A stretch of DNA of 47,185 nt. Origin: Candidatus Thorarchaeota archaeon. GTDB lineage: Archaea > Asgardarchaeota > Thorarchaeia > Thorarchaeales > Thorarchaeaceae. The DNA lies in assembly GCA_011364905.1 (NCBI GenBank), contig RDNZ01000021.1, positions 1 to 47,185 on the forward strand, read 5' to 3'. Every line of letters begins with the position of its first letter. The stretch's first letter is position 1. The translations under genes and the position numbers were made by a program. Under the pieces are notes generated by a model. It saw nothing but the letters and a program-made list of their open reading frames with translations, did no database searches and was not told the origin of the DNA. Positions 30,411 to 32,968 of the stretch are shown here, piece after piece.

Positions 30411-31751
30411 TTAAACAGGAACCTCAACTGCAATCTCGGGTAATTCGATTTCCTCTTCGGGTTGTTCACTCTCTAACTTACTATGGAGATTAAGTTTAGC
30501 CACAGCAAAGAATCCAAGAACTGAAACCAGGACAAGGGCGAAAGCAGCTCCTATCATTGGAGGACCAGTGGATGCAGCAGCTTCAGCCCAAACGCCGCCT
30601 ATCCCCATGCCCACGACCTGTACGGCAGTGAAGACAACGTTGAGCAACGCAAACACACGGCCGCGCAGTTCATCCCGTACTAGTTGCTGCAAAAGGACTG
30701 TGAGGGGGATATCTAGTATAACATCCACAGAACCGATCATGGCCCACGACAGCATAACTGTTACAAGATCGAATGCCAGGACCATGAAGAAGACTGCAAC
30801 TCCTGCAAGGATACCAGCCCCAGCAATGAGATATAGTGGTTTGTTGATTTTGGTCTTCCGACTGAAATACAATGCAGCAGCTGCCCCAGATGCTGCTCCT
30901 GCACTCAAAACCAGTCCGATTTGTGTAGCCCCCAGGGCAAGCTCACCTTCAAGGTAGGGTATGAAGAGAGCATTTAGAATACCAGAAGAAACGGCAAGAA
31001 GCATTGCAAATACAAATAGGAAAGAGAGTATCGAATTTCCGATTACGAATTTGGCTCCCTCTTTTATCTGCATCATGAGTGACTCTTTACTCTGAAGGTC
31101 GTGATCAGGAACAAGATCAGTGGCAATCATACTGAGTGCAAGCGCTGAGAAGACAAATGATGCAGAGTTGATTGCAAATGCTGGAAGATAATTCGGTGCA
31201 AGGAGTGCAACAAGGATACCACCAACTGGAGGGACAACTAACTGAACAACTTGGAATGTCATCTGAGATAGAGAGTTGGCTACTACTAGCTCATCACCCT
31301 CAACAAGATTGGGGATTGCTGCACTCCTTGCTGGAAAGAACCAAGCATTAGCGGTGGCATAAACAAAAGTGAGGAGGTACACCCAGTAGATTGCGGGGAA
31401 GAAGGTAGGAAAGTACTCTGTCAAAGGTATTAGAATAATGACGGTTGCACGCGTGATATCGGAGGCAACCATAATCGTCTTGCGATTCCAACGATCAATA
31501 TACACACCAATTGGACCTGCAAATGCAACCACTGGAATAGTCTGAGCCATTGCTAGTATTGCCATAGCCATTGGAGATTGTGTCAGGTCGAAAGCATAGA
31601 ACATGAGTGCCAGAGTAGCAATTGCTGTGCCAATGTTTGAAACCAATTGACCAGACCAAAGAAGTGAGAAGTCTCGATGAGTTAGAACTGATCGGAGTCC
31701 TTTGGATTCACCACTATCCTCGAGTCCTTGAGAGGTGACAGCCTCAGTCAT
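30411..31751 (-). CDS. MFS exporter (DHA3/MefA-EntS-like)
   Basis: DFSLLWSGQLVS, GVYIDRWNRK and ELRGRVF motifs; about 12 TM segments. Confidence 0.92.
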   Translation of the reverse strand: MTEAVTSQGLEDSGESKGLRSVLTHRDFSLLWSGQLVSNIGTAIATLALMFYAFDLTQSPMAMAILAMAQTIPVVAFAGPIGVYIDRWNRKTIMVASDITRATVIILIPLTEYFPTFFPAIYWVYLLTFVYATANAWFFPARSAAIPNLVEGDELVVANSLSQMTFQVVQLVVPPVGGILVALLAPNYLPAFAINSASFVFSALALSMIATDLVPDHDLQSKESLMMQIKEGAKFVIGNSILSFLFVFAMLLAVSSGILNALFIPYLEGELALGATQIGLVLSAGAASGAAAALYFSRKTKINKPLYLIAGAGILAGVAVFFMVLAFDLVTVMLSWAMIGSVDVILDIPLTVLLQQLVRDELRGRVFALLNVVFTAVQVVGMGIGGVWAEAAASTGPPMIGAAFALVLVSVLGFFAVAKLNLHSKLESEQPEEEIELPEIAVEVPV

Positions 31752-31756
31752 TCATT

Positions 31757-31855
31757 TCATCTCCTGAAATAGTTACGAGCCAAGGCATCAGTGGTTTGCA
31801 CTGACTTGGCTTCTCTCCATACGCGAGGTTTCCCATCGATTTTCGCTAGAGCCAT
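31757..31855 (-). CDS. Small peptide C, MALAKIDGKPRVWREAKSVQTTDALARNYFRR (32 aa)
   Basis: Hand-translated; SD AGGTGA overlaps the upstream stop; ends 5 nt before the MFS ATG; similar to peptides A and B. Confidence 0.72.
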   Translation of the reverse strand: MALAKIDGKPRVWREAKSVQTTDALARNYFRR

Positions 31856-31860
31856 GTTCT

Positions 31861-31971
31861 TCACCTTTGTACTGTCATGTACGCGTATGCGAGTGCTTCC
31901 GCTGTTTGCACATGCGCAAATACAGTTTCATCAAAATGACGAGCCATTCGACGATCATTAGTTTGTTTCAT
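31861..31971 (-). CDS. Small peptide B, MKQTNDRRMARHFDETVFAHVQTAEALAYAYMTVQR (36 aa)
   Basis: Hand-translated; C-terminus AL.YAY.TV.R matches peptide A. Confidence 0.72.
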   Translation of the reverse strand: MKQTNDRRMARHFDETVFAHVQTAEALAYAYMTVQR

Positions 31972-32114
31972 TTTCTTTCACACATTCCAATAGATTGGTC
32001 ACAGGATATGCTGCTTCTGAGAAGAACTGACCACATCTCTGACCACTCCGTGACCACGAGAGTCACCATCGGGTCTGAGCAGGGCCAAATCGAGTTTCTC
32101 AGAGAATTATTCAA
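31968..32114 (-). CDS. Possible 48-aa ORF (TTG start), MNNSLRNSIWPCSDPMVTLVVTEWSEMWSVLLRSSISCDQSIGMCERK
   Basis: Starts 5 nt after the peptide A stop; its TGA overlaps the peptide B ATG (ATGA); lacks the shared motif. Confidence 0.35.
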   Translation of the reverse strand: MNNSLRNSIWPCSDPMVTLVVTEWSEMWSVLLRSSISCDQSIGMCERK

Positions 32115-32119
32115 ACACT

Positions 32120-32224
32120 TCACCGCACAACTGTAAGGTAAGCGTAAGAGAGTGCGTCAGTGCTTGCGACTGACTTCTTGTTCTTCAAAACAGATGTTGT
32201 TCGTGAGTTAGTTGTTAGAGCCAT
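32120..32224 (-). CDS. Small peptide A, MALTTNSRTTSVLKNKKSVASTDALSYAYLTVVR (34 aa)
   Basis: Hand-translated; TATA box upstream; similar to peptides B and C. Confidence 0.72.
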   Translation of the reverse strand: MALTTNSRTTSVLKNKKSVASTDALSYAYLTVVR

Positions 32225-32256
32225 GATATTTCACAAGAATTAGTATTCAGATTCAG

Positions 32257-32311
32257 TATATATAGCGAAGCCACTTGTGAGGGTCACCAGAGGGAGTCAC
32301 ATCTTGTGACT
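32257..32311 (-). promoter_or_regulatory. TATA box (32257-32264) and 7-3-7 palindrome (32295-32311)
   Basis: TATATATA about 33 nt upstream of the peptide A ATG; AGTCACA-TCT-TGTGACT. Confidence 0.6.
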
Positions 32312-32554
32312 AGGTGAATGGATAAATGATAAGATAGGAAATTCGTCTGTGGAGTGTATTTCCAAAGCAGACAGAGCTGCCAGCTTATTACTTGTTCATT
32401 AATGATGGCTAAAGCAGGAAGAGAGGAACTATTCTCCTTGAAGTCGGTCGTTCATATCAATATCAACTGCTAAGTAGAATGACATTCTTATCTCAAAGGT
32501 TATATGATAATTAACTATAGTTATTATTCAAATAGAGTATTGGAGACATCATTG

Positions 32555-32968
32555 ATGCAAGACTTCATCAAACAACTGGCTGATGCTCCGAGTGAAAAGA
32601 GAATTCAGGCAATCAATGAACGCTTGAAAGCCCTAATAGCTCAGAGTGAGTCAGAAAGAATTGAAACGATGAAAGGGTTAGTCATGTCTGTGTCTGAACT
32701 ACCTGAGAGTAAGAAGGCACAGTTCATTTCTGATCGTACGTTGTGCATATCACAACTGCCCACCACTCAAATGGCGGCCATCATGAAATCAAGAGCTAAG
32801 CTCTCATCGCTCATCCCGACAGATGTGAATGAGGCGGACATGAAACAGACATTCATGGTCCTGAAGCAGTGGCCAGAGGAAAAACGCAATACATTCATTC
32901 ATGAGATCAAACAAGCATATGAGATTGCGAATGTCAAATTTCCTGCAATGGAAGCAGCCATGAGCTAG
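32555..32968 (+). CDS. Hypothetical all-helical protein
   Basis: ORF from MQDFIK; recurring LP..(K/R) helical units; followed by a terminator. Confidence 0.75.
   Translation: MQDFIKQLADAPSEKRIQAINERLKALIAQSESERIETMKGLVMSVSELPESKKAQFISDRTLCISQLPTTQMAAIMKSRAKLSSLIPTDVNEADMKQTFMVLKQWPEEKRNTFIHEIKQAYEIANVKFPAMEAAMS

Follow-up and report, generated by a model that had tools for sequence, protein, structure and literature searches.

On the minus strand of the 47,185-nucleotide stretch that we analysed (the window), three short open reading frames (ORFs), here named pepA, pepB and pepC, lead up to the gene for an MFS transporter. An operator palindrome, a proximal element, a TATA box and a Shine-Dalgarno (SD)-like element precede pepA, and a spacer separates pepA from pepB. 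In the order of the minus strand the features are:

32296–32310, minus strand: distal operator palindrome GTCACAAGATGTGAC, a putative operator with exact coordinates taken from the sequence
32271–32287, minus strand: proximal operator element GTGACCCTCACAAGTGG, abutting the promoter and near-identical at C17, C78, C11 and C53 of this genome
32257–32264, minus strand: TATA box TATATATA, 32 nt 5' of the pepA ATG
32230–32235, minus strand: SD-like TGTGAA, 5 nt (32225–32229) ahead of the pepA start
32120–32224, minus strand: pepA, 34 aa, MALTTN type, first in the array
31972–32119, minus strand: conserved spacer of 148 nt, with three TGGTCA(C) repeats (32056–32027) and an inverted GTGACCA within 32005–31995
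31861–31971, minus strand: pepB, 36 aa, MK.TNN...HVQTAEALAYAY type
31757–31855, minus strand: pepC, 32 aa from its ATG, MALAK type, ending YFRR
30411–31751, minus strand: MFS transporter, 446 aa, DHA3-like, starting 5 nt past the pepC stop

The original prediction had placed three peptide ORFs here, with a TATA box ahead of the first and gaps of 5 nt both between pepB and pepC and between pepC and the MFS gene; all of this was confirmed, on the minus strand and with the TATA box at 32264–32257, and the C-terminal sequences it quoted are exact. It had also described the stops as lying in SD-like sequences. The stop codons of pepA, pepB and pepC fall within cGGTGA, aGGTGA and AGGAGATGA, respectively, and the final codons of pepC, AGG AGA TGA, are themselves the SD sequence of the pump gene. 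Because the 16S rRNA of this genome, read from the genome itself, ends in GGATCACCTCCT, these GGTGA-type contexts are true SD matches for the next cistron. The TGTGAA ahead of pepA is complementary to the UCAC part of the same 3' end, and across the arrays surveyed GTGAA is kept 5' of the first peptides even where promoters differ. An alternative pepC start, a GTG at 31864 that overlaps the pepB TGA, would give a product of 35 aa, and the pepB ATG overlaps the stop of an ORF in the spacer (ATGA). The neighbours of the array in the window are an SMC protein, an unnamed 219-aa ORF, orphan proteins and a TFIIB-type zinc-ribbon protein.

pepA, pepB and pepC are real coding genes that had previously gone unannotated. 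A profile built only from the copies of other genomes scores them at 56.5, 20.1 and 47.8 bits (E values of 2.5e-16, 5.9e-5 and 1.3e-13 among the 1,751 small frames of the window), and the top score across 20 shuffled windows was 11.2 bits. Each peptide is under purifying selection in its own frame only: pN/pS is 0.38 for pepA (1.1–1.5 out of frame), 0.37 for pepB (0.8–0.9 out of frame) and 0.42 for pepC (1.1–1.6 out of frame, 19 orthologues). Among the pepC orthologues pS is 0.65 and pN 0.27, and the length is exactly 32 codons in 19 of 19; the DNA of the three peptide copies differs at synonymous sites. Near-identical paralogues of pepA with the same promoter are found at C78, C11 and C53 of this genome. 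Orthologues of pepB occur in L040, L042, L070 and L072, and in some lineages the motif at the pepB position has decayed while an ORF of 37–39 codons is retained.

Against this background, the probability that the three ORFs are a non-coding DNA or RNA repeat, open in one frame by chance, is negligible. Such a repeat would fit the near-identity of promoter and pepA at the nucleotide level among four loci of the genome, and the spacer does behave as a nucleotide-level element. For the peptide ORFs themselves, however, the idea is refuted by near-saturated synonymous sites in genes whose amino-acid motif and exact ORF length persist from genus to genus, by pN/pS values of 0.8–1.6 out of frame, and by the diversity of the family, whose 128 distinct peptide sequences form a single length mode of 27–37 aa. 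The original prediction had itself allowed for loss of frame and motif in orthologous loci and for a non-coding DNA repeat as the source of the similarity. Frame, length and motif are conserved in the orthologous loci and the similarity is at the protein level, not the DNA level, so its view of these ORFs as paralogous coding genes, judged by foreign-profile scores and frame-specific pN/pS, holds.

The peptides belong to an undescribed, many-copy family that in the searches made here is restricted to Thorarchaeota (Asgard archaea). Profile searches found it in 78 of 87 genomes and 16 of the 17 genera of the class, with several copies each; a first sample of 36 genomes from the same taxonomic family carried 5–15 copies apiece, and 23 other genomes of the phylum gave no convincing match. 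A search of 1.84 billion representative proteins yielded some 40 tiny matches, all of the same family, which was met nowhere else in that set. The original prediction did not recognise the family, and the peptides have no match in Pfam, NCBIfam, PHROGs, PDB sequence profiles or the ESM Atlas, and a full-text literature search returned no description. Three long proteins, P0001 (1927 aa), P0026 and P0041, matched 10–18 profile positions in 8–24 repeated stretches and are probably low-complexity repeats rather than relatives. This genome alone holds 13 family ORFs at six loci. Gene callers mostly overlook proteins of about 30 residues, and here a whole Asgard class retains hundreds of such genes under selection.

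Across 135 loci and 128 distinct sequences, the peptides are 27–37 aa long (median 33) with a mean net charge of +5.1. The N terminus reads MAL or MAF in 105 of the 128 and the C terminus ends in RR in 79, following a core of S-T-(D/E)-A-(I/L/V)-x-x-A-Y; the region between is variable, rich in Lys and Arg and, by prediction, disordered. In 46, 44 and 28 peptides, respectively, 12, 13 and 14 residues separate the S-T-x-A motif from the C terminus. AlphaFold2 leaves the N-terminal half of family peptides disordered and predicts a C-terminal helix at residues 22–33 of pepA (mean pLDDT 85 over 21–30) and a core helix in a second family member (mean pLDDT 93 over model residues 21–30). The peptides are polar, with no signal sequence, membrane segment or Cys. 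Intergenic gaps are 4–7 nt in 95 of the 135 loci, and array-final peptides without a downstream ORF retain their Arg-Arg through AGA/AGG CGC, which are non-SD codons.

These features bear on the RiPP role put forward in the original prediction. Precursors that are modified in trans and leave the cell through the pump are, in our view, highly improbable. Tandem paralogous short ORFs do adjoin a transporter, and an aromatic-rich tail (Y-A-Y-x-Y) could in principle be cross-linked. Set against these points, no modifying enzyme is present in the window or turns up repeatedly in the surveyed neighbourhoods, and none of the window's neighbours recurs beside surveyed arrays. The conservation pattern is moreover the reverse of a conserved leader with a variable core, with both ends conserved around a variable middle; there is no Cys and no Ser/Thr-rich core, and the family is near-universal in its class rather than patchy.

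The pump itself scores above the gathering thresholds of PF07690 (MFS_1; 99.4 bits, cut-off 33.4) and PF05977 (MFS_3; 97 bits, cut-off 27). Its score against TIGR00900 is 217.7 bits, under the cut-off of 319.6, and against the NCBIfam models for Mef(A), Tet(V), Tap and EntS it reaches 45–81 bits with cut-offs of 324–870. The description of the gene as MefA-like therefore stands at the level of the superfamily and DHA3 group and does not extend to the named families. In about 30 Thorarchaeota genomes an orthologous MFS gene (55–77% identity) is preceded by family peptides, and a peptide ORF is chained to it in nearly all of those with readable upstream sequence. The arrangement upstream may be pepA-pepC-MFS with gaps of 4–5 nt, pepA-spacer-pepC-MFS or, as in this window, pepA-spacer-pepB-pepC-MFS. 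A coupled full-length start was found in 22 of 24 pump loci examined, and in 20 of these the gap between peptide stop and pump start is 5 nt (4 or 6 nt in the other two). Pump genes begin with ATG, GTG or TTG, and many species use one of the latter two codons. The profile missed the last ORF in divergent clades; even there, an ORF of 30–32 codons that ends in AYAYF(S/T)R, or its decayed counterpart, lies directly against the start of the pump gene or overlaps it.

The proposed translational chaining to the MFS gene appears borne out by these 5-nt gaps and stops within SD sequences, kept in orthologous loci. Coupling by termination-reinitiation is predicted in Haloferax for distances of -8 to +10 nt and abolished at 20 nt, and coupled pairs are eightfold enriched for subunits of complexes (PMC10666635); the window gaps of 5 and 5 nt, on one strand, fall within that range. 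RNAalifold finds no conserved pairs at the pepC-MFS junction over 17 orthologues from 17 species (single-sequence z-score -1.5), which makes erm-type control by a hairpin unlikely, and the simplest reading of the coupling would be direct termination-reinitiation. A complex prediction for pump and pepC, both entered as alignments, returned a score of 0.00, under the mark, in a run without controls, and weighs neither for nor against an interaction.

Such a geometry invites an explanation in cis, which we consider unlikely as an account of the family: a translational relay, or leader peptides that arrest at termination, would set the supply of ribosomes to the weak start of the pump, either through the nascent chains or simply through the passage of ribosomes over two or three short ORFs, and in the arrest version a ribosome stalled at the pepC stop would cover the pump start 5 nt downstream. 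The unbroken ORF chain in nearly all readable loci, including divergent clades with an overlap, would fit, as would the GTG or TTG pump starts, conservation that extends to the stop codon, and the length of the ORF at the pepB position, which outlasts its motif. The gene content near other arrays (a second MFS, GNATs, an Imm5-like protein and a YbaK editing domain) also looks like equipment for intrinsic resistance. However, the peptides share a conserved N-terminal tripeptide and retain Arg-Arg through codons that form no SD sequence, there is no conserved RNA structure for a stalled ribosome to remodel, and the distance from S-T-x-A to the C terminus varies among 12, 13 and 14 residues. In the arrest peptides known so far, the distance to the catalytic centre has to be fixed.

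The wider set of arrays weighs further against a general role in cis. Arrays hold 2–4 peptide genes, and in five good genomes, with all arrays considered, the commonest form consists of a MALTTN-type peptide, a MALAK-type peptide and an acidic ORF of 36–41 codons, which in most loci begins 5–6 nt past the second peptide and has a conserved C terminus, E-E-V-L-x-x-E-A-T, with synonymous variation. This cassette has its own promoter and closes with TGAGCA and a T-run, often with a convergent gene next; most family members sit in terminator-ended cassettes with no gene to regulate. There are three cassettes in this genome (C11, C53 and C23), and one genome carries five near-identical copies. With most copies in such pump-less cassettes, the array is no accessory reserved for this pump. 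Of the peptide-plus-exporter operon that was originally envisaged, the chaining to the pump survives and the private accessory does not, with 5–15 copies per genome of which most have no pump; roles as tandem arrest leaders or small regulators of the transporter are likewise weakened as a general function of the family by the pump-less cassettes. Secreted or antimicrobial peptides are still candidate roles.

Members of the acidic family are 36–41 aa long, share the C terminus (L/I)(S/T)x(E/D)EVL(A/M/L)(L/W)EAT and close most cassettes; they include C11:19846-19960 of this genome (G000), its equivalents at C53 and C23, and L096:1226-1342, L098:1297-1404 and L099:1123-1236. In at least 14 distinct loci the preceding peptide ends at an in-frame TAG and the acidic ORF begins 6 nt beyond it. 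Apparent peptide-acidic fusions of 69–72 aa (P0018 and P0028) are gene-calling artefacts in which this TAG is read as Gln on short ENA contigs, and P0029 and P0042, with the same Gln at the junction, are taken as the same artefact. The predicted fold of the read-through form, two helices with a disordered linker (pTM 0.31), is not informative on contact between the parts.

An MFS gene accompanies no more than one or two of this genome's six arrays. At a second MFS-linked array (C78:67691-67866, minus strand), decaying family members lie 0.4–0.9 kb upstream of a 521-aa MFS gene, one with a weak motif (MALTNSNCPIALDRKAVIQTSAIIHAHVYRR) and one with no start codon (...SRSQTVSTRAIADMYFRR).

The 148 nt between pepA and pepB, which the original prediction passed over, are a conserved nucleotide element and not an empty gap. 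Twelve loci carry the same motifs without change: three TGGTCAC repeats at 12–13-nt spacing, GTCTCAGAAAC, and GTGACCA in inverted orientation. Their GTGAC core also occurs in the promoter operator. The window's spacer can be read as a 51-codon ORF (32123–31968, minus strand) that fits exactly, with GTGA and ATGA overlaps, and that has no match in Pfam, NCBIfam or PHROGs scans. In other lineages the motifs lie in the two other frames, in ORFs of 41–45 codons. Because the reading frame differs between lineages, it is the nucleotides and not a peptide that are conserved, and we rejected a conserved protein on that ground. A structured RNA was rejected as well: the sole predicted stem is made of invariant bases, with no covarying pairs. 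The spacer is optional, some species having pepA-pepC-MFS without it, and it may serve as an internal operator, a roadblock or a translated bridge.

Several arrays have a putative control region in common. Operator and TATA box are nearly identical at the four MALTTN-type arrays of this genome, the TATA position is kept in all MALTTN-type arrays, and the palindrome (with at most two mismatches) precedes a TATA box at those four arrays and at two other genes. Upstream of arrays in four other genera the distal palindrome is kept, and the proximal element is recognisable in other genera. The two additional genes of G000, each with operator, TATA box and a related proximal element on the 5' side, are C10:61473-62070, which is bactofilin-like (PF04519, 21.7 bits, sub-threshold) and cut by the contig end, and C32:20025-21254, which encodes a 362-aa multi-pass membrane protein whose N terminus is acidic, then Arg-rich. 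Both are likely members of the same regulon, to judge from these upstream elements. Adjoining the operator in the window is a divergent 154-aa ORF (32504–32968, plus strand) with no family match (best Pfam E value 0.02); the divergent genes at other arrays bear no relation to it, so nothing marks it out as the cognate regulator.

Near other arrays we found a second MFS gene, GNAT acetyltransferases, a YbaK-type editing domain, an Imm5-like protein and a flavodoxin, and since a terminator or an opposite-strand gene separates several of these neighbours from the arrays, co-transcription is not implied. A RimJ/RimL-like GNAT lies within 0.1–1.3 kb of cassettes in four genomes, in varying orientation and as an observation without statistics: G000 C53:13028-13597, L098:2148-2717, L105:2518-3207 and L115:1353-1934 (other strand). 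PF13302 was confirmed for the C53 and L098 copies; those of L105 and L115 were assigned by sequence similarity. As a testable idea, this GNAT might acetylate Ala2 of the peptides, nearly all of which start with Met-Ala.

On balance, we think it probable that the peptides work in trans as basic micro-proteins, produced at a constant ratio to a third-position partner, here the pump, and are not only leaders. One operator-controlled TATA promoter would drive a relay from pepA through the 148-nt element to pepB, pepC and the pump, every stop being placed inside an SD sequence 4–7 nt before the next start, so that ribosomes finishing one ORF could reinitiate on the next. Output of the pump, whose start is a weak GTG or TTG in many species, would then be tied at a constant ratio to that of the last peptide. 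Because an acidic ORF takes the pump's place in the commonest form of the array, we infer that the third position belongs to a partner that handles the cationic peptides. The cassette form, the near-identical copies, the non-SD Arg-Arg codons and the variable distance from motif to stop favour stable products acting in trans and weigh against a pure arrest-leader role. On the other side, only two of the six arrays in this genome adjoin a pump, the peptides are polar and lack a signal sequence or membrane segment, and the family, syntenic and present almost throughout the class, does not resemble accessory bacteriocin clusters.

Within this trans-acting explanation the relation of pump to peptides could take two forms, between which we divide its probability about evenly. 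The pump may export or counteract the peptides; alternatively, the peptides may act inside the cell, as effectors whose induction simply accompanies that of the pump in one stress regulon. DHA3-type MFS pumps export small drugs and siderophores and are not known to export 30-residue peptides. Action in trans would also leave room for a contribution in cis in the pump operon, where the ORF at the pepB position is retained after its motif has decayed, as would be expected if translation as such mattered at that place. A further reading, in which the peptides would be nascent-chain sensors that gate the efflux pump by termination-reinitiation and the free-standing cassettes would be decoys or a second output, strikes us as improbable.

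If the peptides were nascent-chain sensors, they would be the first termination-stall arrest peptides described in archaea, in the closest prokaryotic relatives of eukaryotes; if they were exported or toxic, they would form a candidate peptide-based interaction or defence system in Asgard archaea. The locus unites one shared DNA switch with an unusually strict stop-in-SD relay onto a pump. It offers a compact, reporter-testable model of translational coupling over several micro-ORFs, and it bears on the wiring of an Asgard regulon that would include peptide cassettes, two MFS pumps, a bactofilin-like gene and a membrane protein.

Several known systems share parts of this design. The bacterial arrest leaders PepNL (PMC11890864), TnaC and SpeFL are likewise short ORFs directly 5' of a possibly dependent gene, conserved as far as the stop and set in a transporter or stress-gene context, and pepC, 5 nt before the MFS start, has that position in cis. 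The Thorarchaeota family differs in its archaeal host and in being multi-copy and mostly free-standing, with its own promoter and terminator, so that most copies have no downstream gene. Its motif-to-stop spacing is not fixed (12–14 residues), its N terminus is conserved, and no regulatory RNA or Rho-type element stands between leader and gene; arrest here is only hypothetical. The conserved hairpin that, in erm/cat-type attenuators, hides the SD or start of a resistance gene until a stalled ribosome opens it is absent from the 17 junctions compared.

Among leaderless bacteriocins, aureocin A70 and garvicin KS also consist of leaderless cationic peptides some 30 residues long; their 2–4 tandem paralogous genes are followed by a transporter gene and several peptides are co-produced, much as the arrays here hold 2–4 genes for peptides of 27–37 aa and charge +5.1. 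Those bacteriocins are hydrophobic or amphipathic and Gly/Trp-rich, with dedicated ABC transporters and an accessory, strain-variable distribution, whereas the Thorarchaeota peptides are polar, adjoin an MFS gene at only two of this genome's six loci and are near-universal (78 of 87 genomes, 16 of 17 genera), with conserved synteny to the pump. An acidic partner ORF takes the place of the usual membrane immunity protein.

Small proteins such as AcrZ, MgtS, SgrT and MntS, 30–50-residue products encoded or co-induced with the transporters AcrB, MgtA, PtsG and MntP, offer another parallel. They are mostly membrane helices, single-copy and specific for one transporter; the Thorarchaeota peptides are, in contrast, soluble and basic, and most copies have no adjoining transporter. 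The alpha/beta-type small acid-soluble spore proteins (SASPs) are also multi-copy small proteins with dispersed genes under one shared regulator, but they are 60–75 residues long, monocistronic and bind DNA through a defined fold, and they have no sequence or architectural relation to this family.

The coupled gene pairs of Haloferax volcanii, which are enriched for proteins that work together, fall into a class of -8 to +10 nt that includes the 4–7-nt gaps described here (PMC6728339, PMC10666635). The usual archaeal form of such a junction is a 4- or 1-nt overlap, whereas the Thorarchaeota arrays have a short positive gap with the SD sequence in the last two codons and, unlike the usual archaeal pairs, repeat it two to four times in a row over micro-ORFs.
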